In this document: piece after piece, positions 1-24,497 of the stretch
How positions within the stretch are numbered: the first letter of the stretch is position 1
Layout: every line of letters starts with the position of its first letter
NCBI GenBank assembly: GCA_034521955.1
Contig: JAXHLT010000003.1
Span: forward strand, 4,735-68,734
Length of the DNA stretch: 64,000 nt
Reading direction: 5' to 3'
Source of the DNA: Halanaerobiales bacterium
GTDB lineage: Bacteria > Bacillota > Halanaerobiia > Halanaerobiales > M55B127
Program-made: the position numbers and the translations under genes
Notes under the pieces: model-generated
Seen by the model: the letters and a program-made list of their open reading frames with translations, nothing else
Databases searched by the model: none
Told to the model about the DNA's origin: nothing

Positions 1-43
1 TAGTAAGATACATGTGATATATATCACTTAAAAAATAATAAAT

Positions 44-144
44 ACTCCGAGTCTTATAATCCTAAAGAAAATATTGCAATCAATGGAACTAAGACCGACA
101 GGGTATCTTTGGAAACATAGATGCCTCCCAAGGTGGAAAGGAGT
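44..144 (+). promoter_or_regulatory. Moco/Tuco (molybdenum/tungsten cofactor) riboswitch candidate, aptamer
   Basis: P1 ACUCC(44-48)/GGAGU(140-144). GAG junction. Stem GUCUUA(51-56)/UAAGAC(90-95). GACCG. Hairpin GGUAUCU(102-108)/AGAUGCC(119-125) followed by UCCC and GGAAAGGAG. The same layout with compensatory changes recurs at 19651-19752. It lies 5' of an AOR-family operon. Confidence 0.7.
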
Positions 145-190
145 AGCGGTAAGTTAGTCAAAAGAATCTTATTTGCGCTTTCCTTTCGAA

Positions 191-230
191 AAAAAGCACT
201 TTTTAAATAAATAATAAAGAGTGCTTTTTT
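191..230 (+). terminator. Intrinsic terminator/attenuator (expression platform of the leader)
   Basis: Stem AAGCACU(194-200)/AGUGCUU(220-226) followed by a U-run to 230. It sits between the aptamer and the RBS at 244-250. CUUUCC at 178-184 could compete with the GGAAAG of the aptamer. Confidence 0.65.
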
Positions 231-259
231 ATATGCAAACAATGAGGAGGTATGTATTT

Positions 260-934
260 ATGTCAAAAGAGAACCAAGAATCCAAGAACTTTATGCAGCG
301 TCCGACAACTCGTCGTGAATTTATCAAAAAGAGTGTAGAGGGTGCTGCCGGTGCAGCAGTATCATTTTCAATTTTAAATTTATTTACTGATTCTGCTCAA
401 GCACAGGGAATTAAAACAGCAGATGGTATTGTAATAGTTGACCCTGTTAAATGTACCGGTTGTAGAAGATGTGAGACAAATTGTACAGCATTTAACGATG
501 GAAAAGCTCACCCTTATATTTCACGAGTTAAGGTTGGACCAAACTACAACTTTGGTAAAAACGGACCATCATATAATTACAGATATGGTGATGGTAACTT
601 AGGAGACTTTACCATTGTTGGAGAAACTTGTAGGCAGTGTGAATCTGCAAGGTGTATCAGTGCTTGTCCTATGGATGCAATTTCAGTTGATGAAAAGACA
701 GGTGCAAGGGTAATTGATAAGAAAAAATGTGTAGGTTGTGGAAGATGTGCAGTTGCATGTCCATATGATATTCCTACTATTGACCCTGAAACTAAAAAAT
801 CAACAAAATGTACACTTTGTGAAGGAGAACCAACATGTGCTGCAGGTTGTCCGACTGGAGCTATTGAATTTGTTCCTTGGGAAGATGTAGAAATGGCATT
901 AATTGAAAGAGAAAACTTAATAGAAAATAACTAA
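260..934 (+). CDS. Tat-signal 4x[4Fe-4S] ferredoxin-like electron-transfer subunit (DmsB/NrfC/YdhX-like)
   Basis: RBS AGGAGG then ATG 260 (the track ORF starts further upstream at 221). N-terminus TTRREFIKK plus a hydrophobic stretch plus AQA gives a twin-arginine signal. Four Cys clusters: CTGCRRCETNC, CRQCESARCISACP, CVGCGRCAVACP, CTLCEGEPTCAAGCP. Confidence 0.85.
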   Translation: MSKENQESKNFMQRPTTRREFIKKSVEGAAGAAVSFSILNLFTDSAQAQGIKTADGIVIVDPVKCTGCRRCETNCTAFNDGKAHPYISRVKVGPNYNFGKNGPSYNYRYGDGNLGDFTIVGETCRQCESARCISACPMDAISVDEKTGARVIDKKKCVGCGRCAVACPYDIPTIDPETKKSTKCTLCEGEPTCAAGCPTGAIEFVPWEDVEMALIERENLIENN

Positions 935-951
935 AATAGGAGGTAAGAAGT

Positions 952-3036
952 ATGCCAAAATATCAAGGTTGGGCTGGAAAGATTTTACGTGTAAATTTAT
1001 CTAACGGTTCCATTACTACTGAAAATACAGTTAAGTATAAAGATTATATAGGTGGAATGGGATTAGGATATAAAATAATGTGGGACGAAGTAGATGAAAA
1101 TACCAAACCATTTGATGAGGAAAACAAGATTGTGTTTGGTGCAGGACCATTAACAGGTACAGGAGCACCATGTACAGCAAGAACAAACATAACTTCATTA
1201 TTACCTGCTAATCCACAAAATTTAATTGGAGATTCACATATGGGAGGAAATTTTTCTCCAGAGATGAAGTATGCTGGTTATGATGCAATCATAATTGAAG
1301 GAAAAGCTTCAAGACCAGTATGGTTAAGAATAGAAGATGACAAAGTATCCCTTGAAAGTGCTTCCCGTTTATGGGGACAGGGTATCTTTGATACAACTGC
1401 TAATATAGCTTCTATGATGGGTAAGGAAGCCCAGGTTGCTGCAATAGGTCAGGCTGGTGAAAACCAGGTTCCACTTTCCACTATAATGACAAATGGAAAC
1501 CATTCAGCTGGTGGACATGCGGGTATTATGGGTTATAAAAATCTTAAAGCGATTGGTATAATTGGAACTCAATCTGTTAAATATGCAGCAGATAAAGAAG
1601 ATTGGATAGAATTAAATGAATCAGTAATGTCAATAATTGGTGCAAATAATCAGCATGTTGTACCAAGTACACCACAGCCATGGGCTGAATTCCATGATGC
1701 TTCAAGTCGCTGGACTGCTCAAGAAGGACTTTATTGGGGAGCAGCTGATCAAGAAATAGAAACTGGTATTTGTAAACCGGAAGATACAAATCGAATTGGT
1801 TACAGAACTATGAAAGCAATTAAAGACTTAGGTCCAATCTCTGAAGACTACACAGTTCGAATGGGTGGATGTCAATCTTGTCCAATCCGCTGTCATTCAA
1901 GTGTTAAAGTACCAGAATTAGAAAAGTATGGAGTATCTCCATATGTTTCAAATACATGTGTAGGATTTTGGAGTCATTGGTATGTAAATCAAAATGCTGA
2001 ATCAGAAAAAGATAATTTCTTAAATAAGACATTAGGTGCTCAATTAGCTGATGATTATGGTCTTTGGTTTAATTACGGTCAGTTAGGAAGAGACTTAAAA
2101 TATCTATATGATAATGGAATATTTGAAGAAGTACTTCCTGAAGATGAATATAATGATATTCCTTGGGATCTATATGAAGTTGGAGATCCAGCATTTTTAG
2201 TTGATTTCTATAGAAGATTAGCTTATCGTGAAGGTGAAATAAGTCATATCAGTGATGGCTCAGCAGCAATAGCAGAACGTTGGGATTTAGGTGATGATTA
2301 CTGGAATAGTAAAACAAATAAATTATGGTCACGTATGGGCTATCCTTTACATCATGCCAATGAATCAAATGCTCAGGTTGGTACTTTAATCAATACAATA
2401 TTTAACCGTGATCCAATGTGTCACTCACATCAGAACTTTATTGGAAGTGGTTTACCAACAAAACTGCAAAAAGAAATTGCTGCAGAAACTTGGGGTTCAG
2501 AAGATGCTATTGATGTTCCTGCTAATTATACTCCAATGAATCGTGCAAAAGCTAAATTTGCAAAATGGAGTTTAATTAGAAATGCACTTCATGACTCAAT
2601 GACAGTATGTAACTGGATGTTCCCAATGGTTACATCACCACTTAAGTCAAGAGATTATCGTGGAGATACAACCATTGAAGCTAAATACTTCTCATTAGCT
2701 ACAGGTATGGAGGTCAGTGAAGAAGAACTAGATAAAATTGGTAGAAAAATCATGACCTTACACCGTGCAATGACAGTAAAACAGATGGGAACAGTTGATA
2801 TGCGTAATGAACATGATAGAATTACAGATTGGGTATATGATATGGATCCTGATAAAAACGCATTTGAAGCTGGTACAATTAAGATGGATAGAGAAGATAT
2901 GGAAACAGCAAGAACAATGCTTTATGAAGAATTTGGCTGGGATCCTAAAACTGGTGCTCCAACAGCTGAAACGTTAGATGAACTTGGATTATCAGATGTT
3001 AAAGAAGAGCTAGCCAGTAAGAACTTGTTACCATAG
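952..3036 (+). CDS. Aldehyde:ferredoxin oxidoreductase (AOR) family Mo/W-pterin enzyme, long YdhV-like form
   Basis: 694 aa. AOR-type N-terminus (GWAGKILRVNLSNG, GAGPLTG) and [4Fe-4S] motif CQSCPIRC. It is about 90 aa longer than classical 605-aa AORs. It has no signal peptide of its own. RBS AGGAGG lies 8 nt upstream, and the gap to the Tat-signal FeS gene is 17 nt. Confidence 0.85.
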   Translation: MPKYQGWAGKILRVNLSNGSITTENTVKYKDYIGGMGLGYKIMWDEVDENTKPFDEENKIVFGAGPLTGTGAPCTARTNITSLLPANPQNLIGDSHMGGNFSPEMKYAGYDAIIIEGKASRPVWLRIEDDKVSLESASRLWGQGIFDTTANIASMMGKEAQVAAIGQAGENQVPLSTIMTNGNHSAGGHAGIMGYKNLKAIGIIGTQSVKYAADKEDWIELNESVMSIIGANNQHVVPSTPQPWAEFHDASSRWTAQEGLYWGAADQEIETGICKPEDTNRIGYRTMKAIKDLGPISEDYTVRMGGCQSCPIRCHSSVKVPELEKYGVSPYVSNTCVGFWSHWYVNQNAESEKDNFLNKTLGAQLADDYGLWFNYGQLGRDLKYLYDNGIFEEVLPEDEYNDIPWDLYEVGDPAFLVDFYRRLAYREGEISHISDGSAAIAERWDLGDDYWNSKTNKLWSRMGYPLHHANESNAQVGTLINTIFNRDPMCHSHQNFIGSGLPTKLQKEIAAETWGSEDAIDVPANYTPMNRAKAKFAKWSLIRNALHDSMTVCNWMFPMVTSPLKSRDYRGDTTIEAKYFSLATGMEVSEEELDKIGRKIMTLHRAMTVKQMGTVDMRNEHDRITDWVYDMDPDKNAFEAGTIKMDREDMETARTMLYEEFGWDPKTGAPTAETLDELGLSDVKEELASKNLLP

Positions 3037-3138
3037 TTAAAATATATCTCAAGATTTAATTTAAATTAAGTAAAATAGGGAACTGCTTATAATATTTTAT
3101 AGGTAGTTCCCGATATAAAAATTAAGGAAGTGTGAACT

Positions 3139-3672
3139 ATGGGTAATAATAATATAGAAAAAAATATTTTAGATATTATTACAAAATTGGTTAGAGATAG
3201 ATCTGCTCAAGCTCAAATTACTACTTTAGATGAAATAAAAGAAAAAGTTTCTAATTTAACAGATGAAGAATTTGAAGATAAAATTGAGATACTCAAAACT
3301 GATGATAAGTATAAAGATATAAGGGTTTTGAGTGGTAAGAAGGGCAGATATTTATTTTCAGATAATGATATGACATTAAAATATGCAAAACTTATGGCTC
3401 AAATTGAAGAAAATGATGTAAAAGGTTTAATAGCAAAAACTGTAAGAGAAGATTCAAAAATATATCCAAGACCTACAGATACTACAGTATTTAATAAAAG
3501 CCCTTTCTATTTAGAAGATGATGTACTAATAGATGTTATTGAACAGATGAAAGATGAAGAGGAATATAAAGATATACAAGAAGTTGAGGCTTCAAATGGT
3601 GCTTTATACCTTTTTTCCAATAAACATATGGAAAAGATCATGCTATTGGACTTACAGAATGGGTTGAAGTAA
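3139..3672 (+). CDS. Hypothetical acidic protein (accessory to the AOR module, function unknown)
   Basis: 177-aa ORF with RBS AAGGAAG and no motif I recognise. It occupies the position that ydhW has in E. coli ydhYVWXUT, but homology is not established. The 3' end is uncertain: after the A4 run at 3632-3635 the +1 frame reads KDHAIGLTEWVEVIRKETP up to TAG 3690-3692. Confidence 0.5.
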   Translation: MGNNNIEKNILDIITKLVRDRSAQAQITTLDEIKEKVSNLTDEEFEDKIEILKTDDKYKDIRVLSGKKGRYLFSDNDMTLKYAKLMAQIEENDVKGLIAKTVREDSKIYPRPTDTTVFNKSPFYLEDDVLIDVIEQMKDEEEYKDIQEVEASNGALYLFSNKHMEKIMLLDLQNGLK

Positions 3673-3703
3673 TCAGGAAAGAAACACCGTAGGAGGATCA
3701 TTA

Positions 3704-4409
3704 ATGAGAAAACTTAAACCAAATCATATAAAAGGAAAAACAAATGTATGTGAAGAGACACCAATTGATTTAACAGTAAATGGAAAAGATATTGTTACTT
3801 TTATGTGTACACCTCAAAATTTAAAAGAATTGGCAGTAGGATATCTTTATATACAGGGAATTATTAATGAAGTAGATGAAATAAACTATTTAGCAGCTTG
3901 TGAAGATATGGATACAATAAATGTGGGTGTTAATGGTAAATTAGATGAGTCTTACGGTAAATTAAAAAGATGTATTAGCAAGTAGTTGTGGAAAAGCACT
4001 TGATGATGATAAATTAAGAGATTTAGGTAAGGTGGATTCTAAGATAAAAATTCCTCTTAGTAAGATTAAAAAAATAGCAAAAAAAATGTTTTCAAATACA
4101 GTTTTATATAAAAAAACTGGTGGAGTACATTGTGCAGCTATATCAGACTACAGTGATTTAATTCATCTAAAAGAAGATGTAGGTAGACATAATGCTGTTG
4201 ATAAAGTAGTAGGACAGTCTATTTTAAGTGACTTAGACTTTTCAAACAGTATCATATTTACCTCAGGACGTATTTCATCAGATATGGTATTAAAAGTGGC
4301 TACTTCTAAGTTTCCAATTGTAGTATCTAGAAGTATTCCTAGCAGTCTTGCTTTAGAGATTGCTGAAAAAGCAAATATAACTGTTATTGGAAGAATCATG
4401 CGCCTGTGA
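3704..4409 (+). pseudogene. fdhD: FdhD-family sulfurtransferase, split by a 1-nt frameshift (possible sequencing error)
   Basis: Track ORFs 3704-3985 and 4032-4409 form one protein. The frame changes in the A5 run 3964-3968, after which the sequence reads KDVLASSCGKAL. C-terminal motifs GGVHCAA and GRHNAVDK are typical of FdhD. Confidence 0.75.
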
Positions 4410-14456: not shown

Positions 14457-15707
14457 ATGAGTAAAGATAAAATAAATGGGGAGGTTAATACCATCAAGTC
14501 TTATATAGCAAGACAGCCAATTTTCAATAAAAATGAATCTGTATATGGTTATGAGCTTCTTTATAGAGATAATGCTCAAAGTATTAATAGTATTTTAAAT
14601 GATGATACTGCAACATCTGAAGTCTTAATAAATAGTTTTAGTACAATTGGAATCGAAAATATAATACAAAACAAAAAGGCTTTTATAAACTTTACAAGAA
14701 ACCTCCTTGATAAAGAGATTCCAACAATTTTAGATAGCGAGAAAATAGTTATTGAAGTATTAGAAAATGTAGATCTTAACGAAAAGATGGTCAAAGTATT
14801 AAAAAACTTACGGAAAAACGGATATATAGTAGCATTAGATGATTTTGAATATAATGAAAAAACGATTCCTTTTTTAAAGATAGCCCACATTGTTAAAGTT
14901 GATTTTTCAAATACAAATAAGGTTCAAAGAAATTTAGTTGAATGTATAGCAGATAAATATAATTTTCAATTGTTAGCAGAAAAAATAGAAACAAGAAAAG
15001 AATTTGAAGATGCAAAAGATATCGGATATTCATTGTTTCAGGGATATTTTTTTAAAAAACCAGAGATATTAGAAGGTAATTCTATTCCCGTATATCCAAA
15101 TAACTATTTTAAAGTAATTAAAGAACTTAATAAAAACAATCCTGATTTTAATAAAGTGAGCGATATTATAAAAAGTGATATGTCCTTATCATATAAACTT
15201 CTCAAGGTAATTAATTCAGCAGCTTATGGAATTAGATCAGAAGTTAAGTCTATTAAGCAAGCCTTAGTATTATTAGGAATTGAAGAAATAAAAAAATGGC
15301 TTCATCTTATGGTGATTAAAAACATTGCACATGATGAACCTAAAGAAATTATGAGGATATCTTTAGTTCGTGCTAAAACAGCTGAAAAAATTGCTGAGTT
15401 ATTAAAGCAAGAGGTAAATTCATCAGAACTTTTTATGGTGGGATTATTTTCAATGTTAGACATTTTAATGCATAGAAGTATTGATGTTGTTTTAAAAGAT
15501 TTACCTATTTCTTCAAACATTAAAAAGGGTATTATAGGAAATGAAGACAGTATTTATTCTGACGTTTTGGACTTAATAGTTGCATATGAAGAAGGTAATT
15601 GGATGGTAGTAGATAAATATTGTGATAAATTAAATATTGAAGGTAATACTTTAATCAACGCGTTTTTATTATCGATAGACTGGGGAGAAGAAGTTTTAAG
15701 TTTTTAA
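14457..15707 (+). CDS. EAL plus HDOD domain signalling protein (YuxH-like)
   Basis: N-terminal IARQPIFNKNESVYGYELLYR, VALDDF and FQGYFFKKP give the EAL domain. The C-terminal ISDIIKSDMSLSYKLLKVINSAAYG gives the HDOD domain. Confidence 0.8.
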   Translation: MSKDKINGEVNTIKSYIARQPIFNKNESVYGYELLYRDNAQSINSILNDDTATSEVLINSFSTIGIENIIQNKKAFINFTRNLLDKEIPTILDSEKIVIEVLENVDLNEKMVKVLKNLRKNGYIVALDDFEYNEKTIPFLKIAHIVKVDFSNTNKVQRNLVECIADKYNFQLLAEKIETRKEFEDAKDIGYSLFQGYFFKKPEILEGNSIPVYPNNYFKVIKELNKNNPDFNKVSDIIKSDMSLSYKLLKVINSAAYGIRSEVKSIKQALVLLGIEEIKKWLHLMVIKNIAHDEPKEIMRISLVRAKTAEKIAELLKQEVNSSELFMVGLFSMLDILMHRSIDVVLKDLPISSNIKKGIIGNEDSIYSDVLDLIVAYEEGNWMVVDKYCDKLNIEGNTLINAFLLSIDWGEEVLSF

Positions 15708-16382: not shown

Positions 16383-18161
16383 GTGAGTAAATACAATAAT
16401 GAATTAGATTATGACAGCAATGATTATAATTATTTTAATCTATTAAAGAAATTTTATAATCACTACATTAAAGACAGGAAATTCAAATATTTCTCTATAC
16501 AATTTTTGCATGTTGTAGGCGCCTTGCTGGCATTAGCCCCTCCATTAATTATAAGAAAGATTATTGATGAGGCTATTCCCAGTGGTGAGTTCAGAAATAT
16601 TTTAATTTTAGTCTTATGGGCTTTTGCAATTTATCTTAGTGCAAATATTATTAGAGGAATTAGAGTGTTTTACGGACATAAGTTTGCCCAGTATATTACA
16701 AGAGATATGAGAAATGATTTATACAATCATTATCAAGAATTATCAATGAACTTTCATGATAACAAAAAGACCGGTGAATTAATGTCTAGAATAATAGATG
16801 ACTTAAATCGTCTGCAGGAATTTATTCACCATGGTCCTGAAGCAATAATTACATCATCTGTTTTAGTAACAGGTACTGTAATAATATTGTTTTCTATGAG
16901 TGTAAAGTTAGCTTTAGTTAGTTTAATCTTTACTCCAATACTACTGATTTTTGGATATTTATTAATGAAAAAAATGCATAAAGCATTTAGAAAAACTAGA
17001 GAAAATAAAGCTATTATGAATGATAAACTAGAAGATAATCTAGCTGGTATTAAAGTTATTAAAGCATTCAATAATGAAGATTTTGAAATGGATCGATTTT
17101 CTGAAAAAAATAATGACCATGCTCAAGCAAGGATGTTAGCGATAAAATATATTAGTTTATTAATTCCAGGTTCTAGACTATTAAATATATTTGGTGTTTT
17201 AGCAGTATTAAGTTATGGAGGATATCTAACTTCTATTGGTGCAATTAGTATTGGTACAATAGTTGCTTTTTACGGTTATCTGGAAAGATTTAGAGAACCC
17301 TTACTTAGAATGGTACACATGACTGAAGGTATAAGTAGATTTTTTGCAAGTATAGAGAGATTTTTCAATCATATAGAAATACAGCCTGATATAAAGAATA
17401 ATACTGGTAAGGTTACTGCTAGTAATCTAAAAGGTGAAGTTAATTTTAATGATGTATATTTCTCATATGATGAGGAAACGGTTCTCAAGGGGATAAACTT
17501 AAAAGCTGAAGAAAATCAAACAATAGCACTAGTTGGTCCAAGTGGATCGGGTAAAACTACAATTGTTAGATTGCTATTAAGGTTATATGATATTGATAGT
17601 GGTCAAATTACAATTGATGGTAAAGATATAAAAGATTATAATCTTGAGGAATTAAGACAATCAATGGCAATGGTTATGCAGGAAGACTTTCTGTTTTCAA
17701 CATCAGTAGCAGAAAATATTGCCTATGGTAAACCTGATGCATCCAGAGAAGAAATAATTGAATCGGCTAAAAAGGCTAATGCACATCAATTTATTAGCGA
17801 AGATCTATCTGATGGATATGATACACAAGTTGGCCAACGAGGTGTAAAATTATCTGGTGGACAAAGACAGAGAATATCTATTGCTAGAGCATTTTTAAAA
17901 GATCCAAGACTATTAATTTTAGATGAAGCGACTTCTTCAGTTGACTTAGAGACTGAAGAATTAATACAAGAAGCAGTAAATGAAGTAAGACAAAATAGAA
18001 CAACATTTATTATAGCTCACAGGCTTTCTACTATTATAAATGCTGATGAAATATTATTTATTCAAAAAGGTAGATTATTAGAAAAAGGAAGTCATCAAGA
18101 GTTATTAGAGAAAAACGATCATTATAAAGAATTTTATTCAAAACAGTTTCAAACTGCATAA
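16383..18161 (+). CDS. ABC exporter, fused permease/ATPase (MsbA/YheI-like)
   Basis: 592 aa. N-terminal 6-TM domain. Walker A GPSGSGKTT, signature LSGGQRQR, Walker B LLILDEATS. GTG start after GGGAGGGA. Confidence 0.9.
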   Translation: MSKYNNELDYDSNDYNYFNLLKKFYNHYIKDRKFKYFSIQFLHVVGALLALAPPLIIRKIIDEAIPSGEFRNILILVLWAFAIYLSANIIRGIRVFYGHKFAQYITRDMRNDLYNHYQELSMNFHDNKKTGELMSRIIDDLNRLQEFIHHGPEAIITSSVLVTGTVIILFSMSVKLALVSLIFTPILLIFGYLLMKKMHKAFRKTRENKAIMNDKLEDNLAGIKVIKAFNNEDFEMDRFSEKNNDHAQARMLAIKYISLLIPGSRLLNIFGVLAVLSYGGYLTSIGAISIGTIVAFYGYLERFREPLLRMVHMTEGISRFFASIERFFNHIEIQPDIKNNTGKVTASNLKGEVNFNDVYFSYDEETVLKGINLKAEENQTIALVGPSGSGKTTIVRLLLRLYDIDSGQITIDGKDIKDYNLEELRQSMAMVMQEDFLFSTSVAENIAYGKPDASREEIIESAKKANAHQFISEDLSDGYDTQVGQRGVKLSGGQRQRISIARAFLKDPRLLILDEATSSVDLETEELIQEAVNEVRQNRTTFIIAHRLSTIINADEILFIQKGRLLEKGSHQELLEKNDHYKEFYSKQFQTA

Positions 18162-18268
18162 AGTATTTAAAAAGGCATTTCTTATTATTTATTGGGAATG
18201 TCTTTTTATTTTATCTAATTTGCCTTATAATACAATTAAACACTAATAATTTTAGAAAGGGGTCAAAT

Positions 18269-19576
18269 ATGGGATTTATAATAAATAACCCACAGCTTTG
18301 GAGAAAAAAAGGTATAGATGATAAATTAAATGAAGAAATTAAGACAAAGGTAGATAAAGATGGGAAACTAGAACTGTCAAAAGAGATTGTAGATAAATTG
18401 AATTTAAAACCAGAAACAGAACTTAGATTAAGAAATGATGGAGATACACTTATGATAAAAAGAGCTGATCCTTTGTTAAGTCGTGTATATATAGAACCTA
18501 CAACCGACTGTAACTTAAACTGTAAGACCTGTGTAAGACATTCCTGGGATGAAAAAATCGGGAGAATGGATTTACAAGATTACATAAAAATTATTGATGA
18601 TTTAAAAGAATTTGATAATTTAGATAGGATAAGTTTTTGGGGAATAGGAGAGCCTCTTTATCATCCTGATATTGTAGAGATGATTAAAAGGGCTAAACAA
18701 TTAAATGTTAACACCCAAATTATTACAAACGGTCTTTTACTAGATGAAAGTATGTCTCGGAATTTATTAAAAGCAGGATTAGATAGTCTAGTTGTTTCAT
18801 TAGATGGTACATCTCCAGAAACGATGGCTGATATTAGATCTGGAGCTAATCTAGAAGAGATAATTAATAATGTAAAAACATTTAAGAATCTAAAGTCAAA
18901 ATATAATGATAATAAAACAGAAATCGGAATAGAATTTGTAATTATGAAATCTAATGTAGGCGAGTTAAAAGACTTAAGAAAATTAGCACTTGAATTAGGT
19001 GCGTCTTTCATATTTTTAACAAATCTATTACCTTATACAGAAGCGATGACAGATGAAATACTTTATTCATTTAGTAATAGTAGGTCACAGCCAGAAGAAA
19101 GAACAGAACATAGACCTGAAATATATCTTCCGCCAACAGATTTAAATAAAGATACAGTAAATTCAATTTCAAAGATAGTGGGTAAAACCAGTTCAATTAG
19201 TACGAGACAGGTCCCTTTCGATCCCCACAATGGGTACTGTAAGTTTGTAGAACAGGGTAGTGTAGCTATTAATTGGAAAGGTGAAGTTAGTCCATGTGTG
19301 CCATTAATGCATAGTTATGACTGTTATATAAGAGAAAGAAAAAAACATTTTAAATCTTATGATCTTGGTAATATACAAGATAGTGCATTAGAGGATATAT
19401 ATAATAGTGGAGAGTTTAAAGAATTCAGAAAGAAATTAATTGAATTTCCTTTTTCAGAATGTACACAGTGTTCAGGGTGTGATATGTCTAAAACAAATGA
19501 AAAAGACTGTCATGGGAATACCTTCCCTGTTTGTGGAGACTGTTTGTGGGGTAAGGGAATTGTGCAATGTCCATAA
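18269..19576 (+). CDS. Radical SAM/SPASM-domain protein with N-terminal AbrB/SpoVT-like domain (candidate tungsten-enzyme maturase)
   Basis: The rSAM cluster is CNLNCKTCVRH (Cx3Cx2C). The C-terminus is Cys-rich and SPASM-like (CKFVEQG...SPCVPL...CTQCSGCDM...CHGNTFPVCGDCLWGKGIVQCP). The N-terminus KLELSKEIVDKLNLKPETELRLRNDGDTLMIKR is AbrB-like. Confidence 0.75.
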   Translation: MGFIINNPQLWRKKGIDDKLNEEIKTKVDKDGKLELSKEIVDKLNLKPETELRLRNDGDTLMIKRADPLLSRVYIEPTTDCNLNCKTCVRHSWDEKIGRMDLQDYIKIIDDLKEFDNLDRISFWGIGEPLYHPDIVEMIKRAKQLNVNTQIITNGLLLDESMSRNLLKAGLDSLVVSLDGTSPETMADIRSGANLEEIINNVKTFKNLKSKYNDNKTEIGIEFVIMKSNVGELKDLRKLALELGASFIFLTNLLPYTEAMTDEILYSFSNSRSQPEERTEHRPEIYLPPTDLNKDTVNSISKIVGKTSSISTRQVPFDPHNGYCKFVEQGSVAINWKGEVSPCVPLMHSYDCYIRERKKHFKSYDLGNIQDSALEDIYNSGEFKEFRKKLIEFPFSECTQCSGCDMSKTNEKDCHGNTFPVCGDCLWGKGIVQCP

Positions 19577-19584
19577 AAAAAACA

Positions 19585-19608
19585 TTGTGAAACTATTATT
19601 TTTCACAA
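19585..19608. repeat. Perfect 8-bp inverted repeat UUGUGAAA-N8-UUUCACAA
   Basis: 19585-19592 pairs with 19601-19608, 9 nt after the rSAM stop and about 45 nt upstream of the riboswitch. No U-run follows. Confidence 0.5.
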
Positions 19609-19650
19609 CTTATAAAGGAATTTTAGGTTTTCCCTGTAATTAATATAATA

Positions 19651-19752
19651 TACCTTCGAGTCTTGGAGCCTAAAAAACTAATAATGTTTTATGGCAAATT
19701 GACCGCTGGGTTATAGTAGAAATACTATAGCCTCCCGTGTTTGGAAAGAAGA
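19651..19752 (+). promoter_or_regulatory. Moco/Tuco riboswitch candidate, aptamer (second copy)
   Basis: P1 CUUC(19654-57)/GAAG(19748-51). GAG. GUCUUG/CAA..GAC. GACCG. Hairpin GGUUAUAGUA(19709-18)-GAAA-UACUAUAGCC(19723-32), then UCCC and GGAAAG. RBS AAAGGAGG at 19761-68 follows directly, with no terminator. Confidence 0.7.
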
Positions 19753-19776
19753 TAAATCATAAAGGAGGTATAATTA

Positions 19777-21583
19777 ATGGGGAAAATTCAAGAATTTTCA
19801 GTACTAAGAGTTGATTTAGGAAAACAAACGGTAAAAAGAGAGATAATTGCAGGTGAAAGAGTAGAAAAGTATTTAGGAGGTAGAGGATTAGCATCAAAAA
19901 TTCTATATGATGAGATTGATCCCAAAGTAGATCCTTTAAGTCCTGAAAACAAACTAATTTATGCTACAGGTTTACTGACTGGTACAGCTGCCTCCACAGG
20001 TGGACGTTATATGGTTGTTACTAAGGGTCCATTAACCGGTACAATAGCAAGTAGTAATTCCGGTGGATTTTTTGGTGCAGAGCTTCGTTTTAGCGGTAAT
20101 GATATGATTATCTTTGAAGGTAAGTCTGATAAACCGGTTTATCTTTCAATCAAGGGAGATAAAGCAGAGTTAAAAGATGCCTCACATATTTGGGGTAAAA
20201 AAGTAAATGAAACAACAGATATGTTAATAGAGGAATTTGGTGATGATGGTGCTAGGGTAAGTTGTATAGGTCCTGCGGGAGAAAACCAGGTAATGTTTGC
20301 ATCTATTATGAATGAAAAACATAGAGCTGCCGGTCGTACAGGTGTTGGTGCAGTTATGGGTTCGAAAAATCTTAAAGCTGTTATAGTTAAATCTGATGAG
20401 AATAAAGTTAATTATGATAAAGAAAGTGCAATGGAAGTTGTTAGAAAACAAACTAAAATGTTAAAAGAAGATGGTGTTACAGGTGAAGGACTCCCTGCTT
20501 TAGGAACAAAAGTATTAGATAACATTATTAATTCTAATGGTCTTTATCCATCAAATAACTTCCAGTTTGGAACATTTGATAAGACTGAAGAAGTATCTGG
20601 AGAGGCTTTAGTTGAAAAAGGTTACTTACAGTCTAATAAAGGTTGTTATGGATGTCCAATAAGATGTGGACGTGACGTAAAACTACCTAATGGTAGATCT
20701 GGTGAAGGACCTGAATATGAAACAGGTTGGGCCTTTGGAGCAGACTGTGGAGTTGATGATTTAAATGCAATAACTGAGGCTAACTTTTTATGTAATGAAT
20801 TAGGACTCGATACAATAAGTGCCGGTACTACAATAGCCTGTGCAATGGAATTGATATGAAAACGGTTATATAGATAAAGAAGAATTAGAAAATGGTCCTG
20901 AACTTAATTTTGGTTCTTCTGAATCAATTATTTATTATACAAAGCAAATGGCTTATAGAGAAGGTTTTGGAGACAAATTAGCTATGGGATCATATCGATT
21001 AGCTGATTCTAAAGGTCATCCTGAACTTTCAATGTCAGTTAAAAAGCAGGAACTTCCTGCATATGACCCAAGAGGAGTTCAAGGTCAAGGTTTACAGTAT
21101 GCAACTTCAAATCGAGGAGGTTGTCATGTAAGAGGTTATATGATATCACCTGAGGTAATTGGTGCTCCTGAGAAGTTAGATCCACAAGAATTAAAAGGTA
21201 AACCAGAATGGGTTAAAATATTCCAGGACTTAACAGCTGTAATAGATTCAGTGGGAATGTGTTTATTTACTTCATTTGCATTAGGTTTAGATGACTATAA
21301 AGAGATAGTAAATGCTGGAACAGACTTTAATTATACTTCAGATGAACTTTTACAAGCTGGAGAAAGAATATATAACTTAGAAAGAAAGTTTAATTTAGAA
21401 GCCGGAATAAGTCCTAAAGAAGATAAACTTCCTAATCGTTTTACAGATGTTCCACTTCCTGATGGCCCACAAAAAGGTGTTGTTTCTAAATATAAAGAAA
21501 TATTACCTAAATATTATGAAGAAAGAGGATGGACTCCTGAAGGAGAAATCAGTACTGATAAAATTAATGAATTAGGATTATAA
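19777..21583 (+). pseudogene. aor: Tungsten-type aldehyde:ferredoxin oxidoreductase (classical ~602 aa), interrupted by one extra base
   Basis: Track ORFs 19777-20859 and 20948-21583 form one protein. Skipping A 20854 gives ...CAMEL-YENGYIDKEELENGPELNFGSSESIIYYTKQMAYREG.... Motifs present: GGRGL, GPLTG, CYGCPIRCGR, EYETGWAFGADCG, GLDTIS. Confidence 0.85.
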
Positions 21584-21588
21584 TAAAT

Positions 21589-21870
21589 ATGAAAATAAAA
21601 GTAAAATTATATTCTTTATTTAGATTAAATCTAAAAACTTCTGAAGTAAACTATGAGTTCGAAAAAAATATAAAGGTTAAAGATTTAATAGATAGACTTG
21701 ATGACGATTTTTCAGGTTACTTTTCTGAAAAATTATTGGAATCTGGGGAAATCAAAACTGGTTCCATTATTTTAATTAATGGCAAAAATATTTTTCATAT
21801 TGATAAATTAAACTCTAAAATTAAACATGGAGATATTGTTACAATGTTTCCACCATCTGCAGGAGGATAG
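21589..21870 (+). CDS. MoaD/ThiS-family ubiquitin-like sulfur-carrier protein
   Basis: 93 aa ending ...HGDIVTMFPPSAGG (C-terminal Gly-Gly). It starts 5 nt after the aor stop. Confidence 0.75.
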   Translation: MKIKVKLYSLFRLNLKTSEVNYEFEKNIKVKDLIDRLDDDFSGYFSEKLLESGEIKTGSIILINGKNIFHIDKLNSKIKHGDIVTMFPPSAGG

Positions 21871-21933
21871 AATTATATCTCTTGCAAATTAAAGGATAAT
21901 TTGATATTATTACTTTCAGCAAAGAAATAGAAG

Positions 21934-22350
21934 GTGGACAGATTGAAAGTAGCAGTAATTGATGGATTAGGAGGCGGTTTGGGTTCACAAATCGTCAATA
22001 AATTAAATAAACAATTTGGTGATAGTCTTAAAGTATTAGCTCTCGGCACGAATGCTGGAGCTACTTCTAAGATGATTGCCAATGGTGCCGATGAAGGTGC
22101 AACAGGAGAAAATGCAATTGTTATCAATGTCAAAGATGTTGATATTATCATTGGTCCACTAGGTTTGATAATTCCCAATTCTATGAAAGGTGAAATAACT
22201 ACTGTGATGGCCGAAGCTATTGCAGGTTCAAAAGCCAAAAAAATTATAATTGGGATGAAACAACCTCATGTAGAACTTGTCGGTGTCAGTAACAAATCTT
22301 TAAATGAATTAATAGAAGAAGCGATAGAACAAATTAAAAATCATATATAA
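21934..22350 (+). CDS. DUF3842 family protein
   Basis: KVAVIDGLGGGLGSQIV...ALGTNAGATSKMIANGADEGATGENAIV matches my memory of DUF3842. The start may be GTG 21934 or TTG 21943. The antisense track ORF 21873-22238 is treated as spurious. Confidence 0.55.
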   Translation: MDRLKVAVIDGLGGGLGSQIVNKLNKQFGDSLKVLALGTNAGATSKMIANGADEGATGENAIVINVKDVDIIIGPLGLIIPNSMKGEITTVMAEAIAGSKAKKIIIGMKQPHVELVGVSNKSLNELIEEAIEQIKNHI

Positions 22351-22373
22351 ATCAGATTTATATAAGGATCACG

Positions 22374-22417
22374 AAGGTCTTTACCTGTATTTACTTACGG
22401 GTAGGACCTTTTTTTAT
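22374..22417 (+). terminator. Intrinsic terminator
   Basis: AAGGUCUUUACC...GGGUAGGACCUU followed by U7. Confidence 0.7.
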
Positions 22418-22443
22418 TTGTATTAAAAAAGGAGGAAAACATT

Positions 22444-22989
22444 ATGAATACTAAAAAGTATGTTTACAGTTCTTTATTTATTGCATTAGGAATTTTATTA
22501 CCAATGATTTTTCATGTTATAGGTGGACCAAGCTTGGGAAGAGTTTTATTACCGATGCATTTGCCGGTATTAATAGGTGGGGCTTTTGTAGGACCTTTAT
22601 TTGGTTTAATTATAGGGTTAATTACTCCAATTTTAAGTTCATTGTTTACAGGAATGCCACCAGTTTTACCTATATTACCAATTATGGTTGGAGAGCTAGC
22701 AGTGTATGGACTTGTTATGGGTTATCTTTTTAATAGAATTAAAATGAATGCCTATCTATCGTTAATATTAACTATGCTTGCTGGACGTATAATGGCTTCA
22801 ATCATAGTAATGGGACTTGTCTATGGATTTGGTTTTGGTCAACTTCCAGGCAATCCAATTCTATATATTTATGGAACTATAACAGCAGGTATGCCGGGTA
22901 TTATAGGACAACTTATAATAGTACCTATTGTGATAAATTATTTAAAAAAGTATAACAGTTCTAAATTATCAACTGAATCTGTTTTTTAA
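22444..22989 (+). CDS. ECF-transporter S-component-like membrane protein (substrate unknown)
   Basis: 181 aa with 5-6 TM segments. It is Gly/Pro-rich (LLPMHLPVLIGGAFVGPLFGLIIGLITP), like ECF S components. RBS AAGGAGGA. Confidence 0.4.
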   Translation: MNTKKYVYSSLFIALGILLPMIFHVIGGPSLGRVLLPMHLPVLIGGAFVGPLFGLIIGLITPILSSLFTGMPPVLPILPIMVGELAVYGLVMGYLFNRIKMNAYLSLILTMLAGRIMASIIVMGLVYGFGFGQLPGNPILYIYGTITAGMPGIIGQLIIVPIVINYLKKYNSSKLSTESVF

Positions 22990-23077
22990 ATAAATTTTAT
23001 TTAAAAAGGAATATTAAACCCTTCTCTTTAATTAATAATATAGAATAGCATTATTAATTGATAGGGGGTTATTTTAG

Positions 23078-24055
23078 ATGCCAGCTAATTTACCACCTCA
23101 GTATTATGAAGCTGAGGAAGTATTTAGAAATGCACAAACTTCGGAAGAAAAAATTGCCGCATTAAAAGATATGCTTTCAATTATGCCTAAACATAAAGGT
23201 ACTGAAAAACTTCAAGCTGATTTAAAAAAAAGAATTTCTAAATTAAAGGAAGAAAAAGAGAAAAAAAGCAAAACAAAAAGCACATATAATCCATATTTAA
23301 TTGATAAAGAGGGTGCTGGTCAGGTAATATTACTGGGATATCCTAATGTTGGTAAGTCCTCAATAGTAGAATCTTTAAGTAATGCAAAGGTTAAGGTTGC
23401 TAAATATCCTTTTGCAACTTCTTTACCGACAGCAGGTATGATTAACTTTGAAGATATACAAATTCAATTAATAGATACTCCTCCATTAGTTCCTGAAGAT
23501 GTGCCGGGTCCGATGGTGAGCGCTATATTTCATGCTGACTATTTAGCAGTTGTAATAGACATATCTGCAAAAGATTGTCTTGACCAATTATCAGGTATTA
23601 TTGATTTTTTAGAAAATAAAAGATTGATTAGAGAAGATATACCTGAAAATGTAAAGGCATATCATCTTAATGATATTTTAATTATTGCAAATAAAATTGA
23701 TTTAGAGGGTGTAGATGAAAACTTAGATATAATAAAAGAGCTTTATCCTGAGCTAGAAATTTTAAATGTTTCTACTAAAAATAATCTAAATATAGAGAAA
23801 ATACCTAAAATACTATTTAAAAAATTAAAAATAATTAGGGTGTATAGTAAAGCCCCTGGAGAAGAACCAGATTATAAGCAACCATATATACTAGACAAAG
23901 GAAGTATAGTTTTAGATTTTGCCCAACTTATTCATAAAGACTTTGCCAAAAAACTTCAAAAAGCAAATATTTGGGGGTCAGCTCGATTTGATGGTCAAAG
24001 TGTGGCAAAAGATCATGAATTAGAAGACAAAGATGTTGTGGAATTGCATATATAA
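23078..24055 (+). CDS. OBG/DRG-family GTPase with C-terminal TGS domain
   Basis: G1 GYPNVGKSS, G3 DTPP, G4 NKID. The C-terminus ...DGQSVAKDHELEDKDVVELHI is TGS-like. Confidence 0.75.
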   Translation: MPANLPPQYYEAEEVFRNAQTSEEKIAALKDMLSIMPKHKGTEKLQADLKKRISKLKEEKEKKSKTKSTYNPYLIDKEGAGQVILLGYPNVGKSSIVESLSNAKVKVAKYPFATSLPTAGMINFEDIQIQLIDTPPLVPEDVPGPMVSAIFHADYLAVVIDISAKDCLDQLSGIIDFLENKRLIREDIPENVKAYHLNDILIIANKIDLEGVDENLDIIKELYPELEILNVSTKNNLNIEKIPKILFKKLKIIRVYSKAPGEEPDYKQPYILDKGSIVLDFAQLIHKDFAKKLQKANIWGSARFDGQSVAKDHELEDKDVVELHI

Positions 24056-24080
24056 ACTTAAAAAGGAATGAATAAATAAA

Positions 24081-24497
24081 ATGAATGAAAAAGAATTAGC
24101 AATTAATGAACTTAATAACAGTGAGTATTCTTTAATAATAGTGAAAAGTAATAAAATTGTATATAAGAGTAAAAAAGAAAGTGTTGGTTCTATTGTTGGA
24201 CTTTTAGAAAACAATCCTGAAATTTTAAAAGATGCTATTGTTGCAGATAAAATAATTGGTAGGGCAGTAGCTATGATTTGTGATTATAGTTCAGTAAACT
24301 TTTGTTATGGTAAAATAGTAAGTAAAGGTGCAGTGGATATTTTTGAAAAAAGGAATTTAGAATATGAAGCAGAAAATATAGTTAAGGCTATAAAAAACAG
24401 AGATAATACTGATTTATGTCCAATAGAAAAATTGACTTTGGATGTTGATGACAGTGAAGAGGGAATAAAAAGAATAAAAGAATTTATTAATAATTAA
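24081..24497 (+). CDS. DUF1893 (TM1506-like) domain protein
   Basis: VADKIIGRAVAMI...SKGAVDIFEKRNLEYEAENIVKAIKNRDNTDLCPIEKL matches the DUF1893 pattern as I recall it. Confidence 0.55.
   Translation: MNEKELAINELNNSEYSLIIVKSNKIVYKSKKESVGSIVGLLENNPEILKDAIVADKIIGRAVAMICDYSSVNFCYGKIVSKGAVDIFEKRNLEYEAENIVKAIKNRDNTDLCPIEKLTLDVDDSEEGIKRIKEFINN

Follow-up and report, generated by a model that had tools for sequence, protein, structure and literature searches.

The module formed by a tungsten AOR, a MoaD-like sulfur carrier, and a radical SAM (rSAM) enzyme has reportedly been known since the work on P. furiosus aor and cmo. To our knowledge, no Cmo-like rSAM enzyme has a known reaction and no biochemical function has been assigned to the family. 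Linkage of AOR to MoaD was described by Iyer, Burroughs and Aravind in 2006 (PMC1779556), where the rSAM gene is not discussed, and the aor-ublC-rSAM trio of Thermococcales has also been published, with the suggestion that the rSAM protein encoded next to aor "might be involved" in maturation of the tungsten cofactor (PMC11323500). The trio of AOR, MoaD-like, and rSAM genes is thus already published, and the module itself is not new. On the regulatory side, Moco aptamers that lack the P3 stem correlate with use of the tungsten cofactor (Regulski et al. 2008; PMC2408646).

We analyzed a locus of this kind in a Halanaerobiales bacterium (assembly GCA_034521955.1, contig JAXHLT010000003.1, positions 4,735 to 68,734; this stretch of 64,000 nucleotides is referred to as the window, and coordinates are given within it). 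With modest confidence, we lean toward reading the locus as the Halanaerobiales form of the known module, comprising a tungsten AOR sensu stricto (aldehyde:ferredoxin oxidoreductase), a dedicated MoaD-like sulfur carrier of ubiquitin fold, and a Cmo-like rSAM/SPASM enzyme. Every gene listed by a first-pass annotation of the sequence was recovered at the same positions, and the features from the rSAM gene to the terminator all lie on the forward (+) strand.

The rSAM gene (18269..19576) encodes a 435-amino-acid protein, and Pfam profile searches matched both Radical_SAM (PF04055, 5.6e-22) and SPASM (PF13186, 2.7e-14). The CX3CX2C cluster motif, CNLNCKTC (C81, C85, and C88; 18509..18532), occupies columns that are invariant in 87 homologues, and the homologue alignment contains nine further invariant cysteines (C324, C343, C398, C401, C404, C414, C422, C425, and C434); together with the domain match, these bear out the Cys-rich SPASM-type C terminus (19238..19573) described in the first pass. 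The maturase model named there exists as TIGR04317 (NCBIfam W_rSAM_matur, an equivalog named "tungsten cofactor oxidoreductase radical SAM maturase"). This model gives the protein its highest score, 317.2 bits against a cut-off of 380, and it aligns end to end over residues 71 to 435 of a protein whose gene adjoins AOR, but it leaves the N-terminal domain uncovered, and ars-linked relatives score equally well or higher (259 to 334 bits for ten relatives from AOR and ars contexts, with 334 bits for an ars-linked Dehalobacter homologue versus 317 for the window protein). The second-best model, TIGR04311 (NCBIfam rSAM_Geo_metal, "radical SAM/SPASM family putative metalloenzyme maturase," Geobacter type), scores 256.4 bits against a cut-off of 400 and aligns well only to the rSAM core. 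In an AF2 model (mean pLDDT, 79.7), the closest solved folds are BlsE, SuiB, BtrN, DesII, anSME, and MoaA. These SPASM/twitch structures share with the model a partial TIM barrel and a C-terminal auxiliary-cluster domain; they differ in being only 13 to 21% identical to the window protein (TM about 0.45 to 0.5), which carries additional conserved cysteines (CX2CX2C...C...CX2C...C) and an AbrB-type N-terminal domain in place of an RRE.

The resemblance of that N-terminal segment (approximately residues 25 to 70; 18341..18478) to AbrB/SpoVT, proposed in the first pass, is supported mainly at the family level. Alone, the window domain matches PF04014 at E = 0.003 and 17.9 to 19 bits, under the cut-off of 24.7 bits; among homologous N-terminal domains, 26 of 38 match at E ≤ 0.05 (best, E = 1.5e-7), and a profile built from them retrieves SpoVT, AbrB, and MazE structures (SpoVT/AbrB at E values of 0.001 to 0.03). 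The domain is conserved in the homologue alignment and is modeled by AF2, as a monomer, with a β-β-α-β-β secondary structure (pLDDT, 80 to 86). Judged from these matches, it is very likely a domain of AbrB/SpoVT type, and a half-barrel of the AbrB/SpoVT/MazE kind would probably dimerize the rSAM protein or dock a partner.

Downstream of the rSAM gene by 200 nt lies aor, preceded by a leader (19642..19767) that matches the RF01055 covariance model of the Moco riboswitch over its full length at 75 bits (gathering threshold, 36 bits), so that the Moco/Tuco leader of the first pass stands. The P3 positions are deleted in this alignment, the ribosome-binding site AAGGAGG lies at the 3′ end of the aptamer, and the aor ATG follows at 19777; all 10 relatives tested carry the same aptamer immediately upstream of aor. 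A P3-less aptamer with the ribosome-binding site in its 3′ end points to putative translational control of aor by the pterin (tungsten) cofactor. Since the rSAM gene lies upstream of the riboswitch in this gene order, it would sit outside such control, which counts against the module reading. Five nucleotides after aor begins the gene (21589..21870) for a 93-amino-acid MoaD/Ubl-type sulfur carrier with the C terminus PPSAGG; the match to TIGR01687 (56.3 bits; cut-off, 49.5) upholds the earlier description of a GG-ended MoaD/ThiS-like protein.

Across Halanaerobiales, where the rSAM proteins are 61 to 91% identical, the gene adjoins the P3-less riboswitch, AOR, MoaD, and usually a ThiF-type E1. 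In 22 of 27 Halanaerobiales rSAM loci, aor lies within 2.5 kb; in the other five, either the contig ends too soon or an Fe-ADH gene separates the two. We observed three gene orders (rSAM-aor-moaD-thiF, aor-rSAM-moaD-thiF, and rSAM-adh-aor-moaD-thiF), the rSAM gene staying beside aor through several such changes. In 18 Halanaerobiales loci, the gene after aor is an orthologous moaD that encodes the same C-terminal tail, and in most relatives the E1 gene (ThiF/MoeB) comes next, while the window contains neither an E1 gene nor the thiF-DUF362-fer block of those relatives. Beyond this order, rSAM homologues show independent linkage to AOR in Longilinea, in a Clostridia metagenome-assembled genome (MAG), and in Acidobacteriota. 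Of the rSAM-aor-moaD-DUF3842 neighborhood named in the first pass, the first three genes stay together throughout Halanaerobiales and the last does not belong to the module. DUF3842 is indeed encoded at 21934..22350 (PF12953, 161.9 bits against a threshold of 28.5; 1.3e-47), 5′ of a terminator-like hairpin with a T-run (22380..22415) that had also been reported, and its AF2 model (pLDDT, 90) is Rossmann-like with weak matches to UbiX and the FtsZ N-terminal domain. In sister lineages, however, ThiF, DUF362, ferredoxin, and an opposite-strand hom gene lie between moaD and DUF3842, and no DUF3842-AOR linkage was found in other Firmicutes. We judge DUF3842 to be a passenger and, like the ABC exporter upstream, a bystander without a role in the module.

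Outside Halanaerobiales, full-length rSAM homologues (37 to 48% identity) occur mainly in arsenic-resistance operons that contain neither AOR nor MoaD. Among the 88 family rows, 39 are ars-linked and 26 are AOR-linked; the ars contexts include Acr3, ArsP, ArsR, and XdhC. An alternative that we regard as unlikely is that the family performs arsenic or metalloid chemistry, for example, an oxygen-independent reaction on organoarsenicals or thiol-bound As(III), and not tungsten cofactor chemistry, with adjacency to aor in Halanaerobiales being secondary. It draws on the number of ars-linked rows, on Acr3 often lying directly upstream (identified by TIGR00832; 375 bits, cut-off 283), on one family member fused to ArsM (NF008823; 350 bits, cut-off 263), and on the higher TIGR04317 score of the Dehalobacter protein; no paper in the collection searched describes a link between this rSAM family and arsenic. 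Yet members of the Halanaerobiales clade remain linked to AOR despite rearrangements and have no ars genes nearby, at least four unrelated lineages, and archaea too, show AOR linkage again, and arsenic chemistry would not explain why selection holds the rSAM gene next to aor, moaD, and thiF. We note that the ars majority outside Halanaerobiales could mean that the rSAM chemistry is unrelated to pterins. Tentatively, and with a little more weight than we give to arsenic chemistry proper, we propose that Cmo-like enzymes, the AbrB-domain branch among them, may run one conserved radical reaction used both beside tungsten AOR and in arsenic-resistance operons, not AOR-specific maturation; this reaction could shield or restore the pterin dithiolene, which is sensitive to arsenite, or could act on an arsenical without oxygen.

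The first-pass label "classical AOR" was right about the family and overlooked a break in the gene. In the window, aor is split between two open reading frames of different frames: a 5′ part of 360 codons followed by TGA (19777..20859; AFOR_N, 2.6e-83; AFOR_C profile positions 1 to 142) and a 3′ part of 242 codons in the +1 frame (20855..21583; AFOR_C positions 143 to 385, 1.6e-91), with the break at AFOR_C position 142/143. The cause is one extra base, A20854, at the site TTG-A-TAT-GA (20851..20859). Read through this site, the protein aligns unbroken with P. furiosus AOR (1aor; residues 10 to 601 versus 9 to 601, 747 bits, 1.5e-223) and is a full-length AOR sensu stricto. Near-identical contigs from four metagenome runs (X1, X2, X3, and X5) are all one base shorter at this site, and the closest MAGs (L004 and L028) lack the extra base and carry an intact aor; on this comparison, A20854 most likely reflects either a mistake in assembly or a lesion that the strain acquired very recently. 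That aor is a true pseudogene, in a module decaying in a lineage that has also lost thiF, seems to us improbable. The broken frame, the missing thiF-DUF362-fer block, and a similarly broken fdhD in the second AOR-type operon all speak for decay. Against it, L004 and L028 equally lack thiF and keep aor intact, both halves of the window gene are otherwise fully conserved, the X5 contig is identical to the window except for lacking A20854, and further single extra bases relative to near-identical contigs (at 3964, 4405, and 4435) point to assembly error. The frameshift is a warning that this assembly carries single-base insertions able to break genes.

The distribution of the rSAM family also bears on its substrate. 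The first-pass annotation had suggested, besides action on the pterin, that the enzyme may modify AOR or MoaD and that the AbrB-like domain could bind such a protein; we consider this protein-substrate proposal quite unlikely. Tight synteny with aor and moaD favors it, as does the presence of the SPASM enzymes anSME, SuiB, SkfB, and CteB among the nearest folds, with the N-terminal domain placed where SuiB has its peptide-binding domain. However, AOR-adjacent and Acr3-adjacent rSAM paralogs are 69 to 73% identical (69% for a pair within one genome), the latter lacking AOR or MoaD beside them, and the AbrB domain is not confined to AOR contexts, being present in 20 of 40 ars-linked and 21 of 25 AOR-linked members and so missing from four of the latter. 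We know of no side-chain modification reported in solved AOR structures from cmo-carrying organisms, which we also count against this proposal. Because such close paralogs switch between contexts, with homologues in ars operons and one fused to ArsM, the AOR polypeptide is an unlikely substrate, and a small molecule is favored, probably the pterin-dithiolene cofactor; paralogs in both contexts restrict the candidates to compounds common to the two, for example, a pterin-dithiolene or a thiol-bound metalloid. We further count for a small molecule the 47 rSAM columns invariant across AOR and ars contexts, the failure to find MoaD in any ars-type rSAM locus, the XdhC-type Moco chaperone genes directly upstream of rSAM in four ars-type loci, and the small-molecule SPASM/twitch enzymes BlsE, BtrN, DesII, and MoaA among the nearest folds. 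The position of the rSAM protein under both curated cut-offs and the lack of an E1 gene in the window (shared by L004 and L028) are counted against the module and pterin reading.

Two readings are very improbable. Programmed +1 frameshifting of aor has in its favor a 0-frame UGA immediately after the site, but slippery pairing is impossible (UUG to UGA, or AUA to UAU), a UGA at 20852-20854 in the +1 frame would leave only one codon in which the shift could take place, and in all relatives this peptide is read from a single frame; their intact frames effectively refute it. Likewise, a RiPP system in which the rSAM protein matures a peptide secreted by the ABC exporter (16383-18161; ABC_membrane and ABC_tran) would suit the SPASM architecture and the adjacent exporter, but the exporter is MsbA-like, lacks a peptidase domain, and neighbors rSAM only in the closest relatives, no Pfam match to an RRE/PqqD-like leader-binding domain was found in the rSAM protein, and neither intergenic gap holds an ORF of at least 20 amino acids, in keeping with the earlier view that no precursor is visible and that the exporter is probably unrelated.

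Under the module reading that we favor, the sulfur of the dithiolenes in both pyranopterins of the tungsten cofactor would come from MoaD, together with an E1 whose gene would lie at another site in the genome. For the rSAM enzyme we would expect radical chemistry that draws on the SAM cluster and on two auxiliary clusters and is directed at some small substrate that cells generally have available. The likeliest candidate is the pterin-dithiolene cofactor or one of its precursors, and the reaction could serve cofactor synthesis, ligation of sulfur, or repair.

The locus adds a bacterial, putatively riboswitch-controlled example of a known module and is ordinary on its own; what makes it useful is the access it gives to the function of Cmo-like rSAM enzymes, a question testable in tractable hosts. 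The relatives of this enzyme are more often arsenic-operon genes than AOR neighbors, and the family-wide arsenic link is a lead worth following. Compared with described systems, the leader shows no difference from the P3-less Moco RNA motif proposed as a tungsten cofactor riboswitch (PMC2408646), being full length, P3-less, and upstream of a tungsten enzyme gene. As in the AOR-linked MoaD/MoeB neighborhoods of Iyer, Burroughs and Aravind (PMC1779556), moaD is strictly adjacent to aor and E1 comes next in most Halanaerobiales relatives, although the window itself lacks E1. With the Thermococcales trio (T. kodakarensis tk1066-tk1065-tk1064; P. furiosus aor/cmo), the locus shares an AOR sensu stricto, an adjacent GG-ended MoaD-family Ubl, and an adjacent rSAM gene, the likeness of the latter to P. 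furiosus Cmo and T. kodakarensis TK1064 being indirect, through TIGR04317 similarity only; it differs in being bacterial, in its gene order, in the riboswitch before aor, and in the additional AbrB-type N-terminal domain of its rSAM enzyme.

Profile and ORF analysis of the window confirmed the coordinates and domain calls of the first-pass annotation. The plus strand encodes an MsbA-like ABC exporter without a peptidase domain (16383-18161), a 435-aa radical SAM/SPASM protein, here termed rSAM (18269-19576), a Moco-class riboswitch (19642-19767; RF01055 at 75 bits, threshold 36), the aldehyde:ferredoxin oxidoreductase gene aor, divided between two reading frames (ORFs at 19777-20859 and 20855-21583), a 93-aa MoaD-family protein located 5 nt 3' of aor and ending in PPSAGG (21589-21870; TIGR01687, 56.3 bits against a cutoff of 49.5), a DUF3842 protein (21934-22350), and a terminator-like hairpin with a T-run (22380-22415). 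Upstream of the exporter lies a gene for an EAL-HDOD protein (14457-15707), likely a c-di-GMP phosphodiesterase-type regulator.

The aor product had been called a classical AOR. Its family assignment stands, because the read-through protein aligns gaplessly to P. furiosus AOR (1aor; 747 bits, residues 10-601 versus 9-601) and is thus an AOR sensu stricto; the gene in the window is not intact, a break that the earlier reading had missed. This break coincides exactly with positions 142/143 of the AFOR_C profile, where the window reads ATG GAA TTG A TAT GAA AAC; without A20854, the site translates as MELYENGYI. Contigs from four metagenome runs (salt pans and lakes) carry one base fewer here, at full depth, and one contig from run X5 matches the window except for the extra aor base. 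The base is also absent from the closest MAGs (L004 and L028), from which the window differs over 6 kb by this sole coding indel. Further single extra bases, relative to near-identical contigs, occur at 3964, 4405, and 4435 in a second AOR-type operon, where fdhD is also split; those at 3964 and 4405 were seen against a 94%-identical contig. From these comparisons, we interpret the aor frameshift as misassembly or as a lesion of very recent origin. Programmed +1 frameshifting, with a shift window of one codon, is excluded in practice because the +1 frame contains a UGA (20852-20854), slippery pairing is absent, and the relatives are all in frame.

The second AOR-type operon (33-4409) is headed by its own Moco riboswitch (33-159, 67 bits) and encodes a 4Fe-4S protein (221-934), a 694-aa AOR-family protein (952-3036), a 177-aa ORF of no assigned family, and fdhD as two ORFs (3704-3985 and 4032-4409); neither rSAM nor moaD lies beside the AOR paralogue in this operon. 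Both window riboswitches lack P3, and the P3-less Moco aptamer variant has been linked to tungsten cofactor use by Regulski et al. (PMC2408646).

A one-genome-per-species scan gave 80 loci, which we searched with the window proteins and with arsenic-operon proteins; a tree was built of the enzymes (quick search, SH-aLRT support only). The loci were selected by query similarity and two peptide patterns, so context proportions among them are not unbiased. The Halanaerobiales rSAMs (61 to 91% identity) form a single clade (SH-aLRT 99), whose members adjoin aor and moaD wherever the contig extends far enough; synteny of rSAM with aor therefore holds within the order. The genes are arranged in one of three ways: rSAM-aor-moaD, aor-rSAM-moaD, and rSAM-(Fe-ADH)-aor-moaD. 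In all 10 relatives tested, including those with rSAM downstream of aor, the riboswitch immediately precedes aor. A ThiF/MoeB-type E1 gene follows moaD in most Halanaerobiales loci, and several also have genes for a DUF362 protein and a ferredoxin; in two sister loci (L007 7062-9389 and L011 4085-6789), moaD is followed by thiF, which overlaps the moaD stop, then by a 520- to 543-aa DUF362 gene and a ferredoxin gene. This block is missing from the window, L004, and L028, and no ThiF is encoded anywhere in the 64-kb window. Several Halanaerobium genomes carry an iron-type alcohol dehydrogenase gene between rSAM and aor (e.g., L010 9437-10603 and L016 9456-10622), which suggests an acid-to-aldehyde-to-alcohol route. 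The earliest-branching Halanaerobiales rSAM (L025 3458-6489) has no aor nearby and is followed by an overlapping GNAT-PLP-enzyme fusion gene.

DUF3842, which had been counted as part of the AOR module, is ruled out as a member by its gene contexts. In four sister loci (L005, L006, L007, and L011), thiF, DUF362, and an opposite-strand homoserine dehydrogenase gene separate it from moaD, and it keeps company with a downstream ECF S-component gene, a GTPase gene, and a TM1506 gene; in Desulfonispora and another Bacillota genome, it lies beside MFS or ECF transporter genes, with AOR absent. Its structural model (pLDDT 90) is small and Rossmann-like and contains a GGGxG loop; the fold search returned only generic matches of this kind, with weak similarity to UbiX and the FtsZ N-domain. 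The pairing with an ECF S component is seen in the window (21934-24497) and in locus L085 (4516-5399), where the two genes are 11 nt apart; in Halanaerobiales, DUF3842 also occurs with genes for an Obg-like GTPase/TGS protein and TM1506 (DUF1893). Together, these genes may form a unit for salvaging a vitamin or cofactor.

The rSAM protein carries the cluster motif CNLNCKTC (C81/C85/C88) and nine more invariant cysteines in its SPASM-type C terminus. The TIGRFAMs model for AOR-adjacent rSAMs named in the first-pass annotation is TIGR04317, and the window protein scores 317 bits against it (cutoff 380) and 256 bits against TIGR04311 (cutoff 400); because both scores are below the cutoffs, it is formally outside both families. 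The proposed AbrB/SpoVT-like N-terminal segment is supported. The window domain alone matches PF04014 weakly (E = 0.003), and the model matches 26 of 38 homologous N-domains (best E = 1.5e-7); a PDB search with the N-domain profile retrieves SpoVT, AbrB, MazE, and the P. horikoshii protein 2glw; and in the AF2 model (mean pLDDT 79.7; N-domain 80 to 86) the predicted order is beta-beta-alpha-beta-beta. Profile and model evidence together support residues 25 to 70 as an AbrB/SpoVT/MazE-type unit. The idea that this domain docks specifically to AOR or MoaD is weakened by its presence in both AOR-linked (21 of 25) and ars-linked (20 of 40) members. Foldseek with the rSAM model found only generic SPASM/twitch enzymes and no close solved relative: BlsE, SuiB, BtrN, DesII, anSME, SkfB, and MoaA (TM ~0.45 to 0.5; 13 to 21% identity), a mixture of peptide and small-molecule enzymes.

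Outside Halanaerobiales, full-length homologues (37 to 48% identity) lie predominantly in arsenic resistance operons, often right after Acr3 (L001, L003, and L029 to L082; e.g., L068 6858-10320 and L080 6339-9257; also protein P0075). Recurrent neighbors in the 55 non-Halanaerobiales loci are an ArsP-type permease (25 loci), Acr3 (19; confirmed by TIGR00832), ArsR (15), MTH895/ArsE thioredoxin-like proteins (14), CcdA/DsbD (14), membrane thioredoxin-fold proteins (13), a CDF transporter (9), ArsC (6), AOR (5), and XdhC (4), and one homologue is fused to the arsenite methyltransferase ArsM (NF008823, 350 bits versus a cutoff of 263). The gene immediately upstream of and codirectional with an ars-linked rSAM encodes, in 13 loci, a membrane protein of 351 aa that contains a thioredoxin-fold domain (e.g., L051 6862-7917) or, in nine, a CDF metal exporter (e.g., L045 4993-5958). 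XdhC-type Moco chaperone genes lie directly upstream of rSAM in four ars-type loci; among these genes (L030 6926-7744, L034, and L036), the best model is NF045664, "XdhC family aldehyde oxidoreductase maturation factor," at 224 bits, below its cutoff of 350. No MoaD-like gene was found in ars-type loci by HMM at an E value of 1 or less.

The tree requires eight or more switches of gene context on branches with good support. One Acidobacteriota chromosome (OY761556.1) encodes AOR-adjacent and Acr3-adjacent paralogues that are 69% identical (L075 8001-9155 and L080 8001-9257), together with a tandem pair of more distant paralogues. Identity is 73% between one ars-linked and one AOR-linked rSAM from two genomes, and TIGR04317 scores both kinds alike.

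A small, generally present molecule fits these distributions better as the rSAM substrate, and the best candidate would be the pterin-dithiolene cofactor, given the recurring company of AOR, MoaD, and E1, the XdhC genes that directly precede rSAM in four ars-type loci, and the known tendency of arsenite to bind vicinal thiols. A less likely alternative is that this family, in which arsenic operons predominate outside Halanaerobiales, carries out arsenic chemistry independent of pterins. Modification of the AOR or MoaD polypeptide, proposed in the first-pass annotation, is unlikely because near-identical enzymes adjoin both AOR and Acr3. A RiPP cluster with the ABC exporter was rejected: precursor (no short ORF lies between the module genes), peptidase domain, and RRE are all absent, and the exporter, already judged probably unrelated, adjoins rSAM only in the closest relatives. 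The original observation is partly confirmed and its interpretation partly supported.

By itself, the window locus holds modest interest; what merits pursuit is the association with arsenic genes across the family. Our literature search found no rSAM described in ars operons other than ArsL, no report linking Cmo-like rSAMs to ars genes, and no characterized AOR maturase. The window module corresponds to an already known trio, aor-moaD(ubl)-cmo-like: a 2006 paper described how AOR, MoaD, and MoeB genes are linked (PMC1779556), and a 2024 paper described the T. kodakarensis arrangement tk1066-tk1065-tk1064, remarking that the rSAM "might be involved" in maturing the cofactor (PMC11323500).
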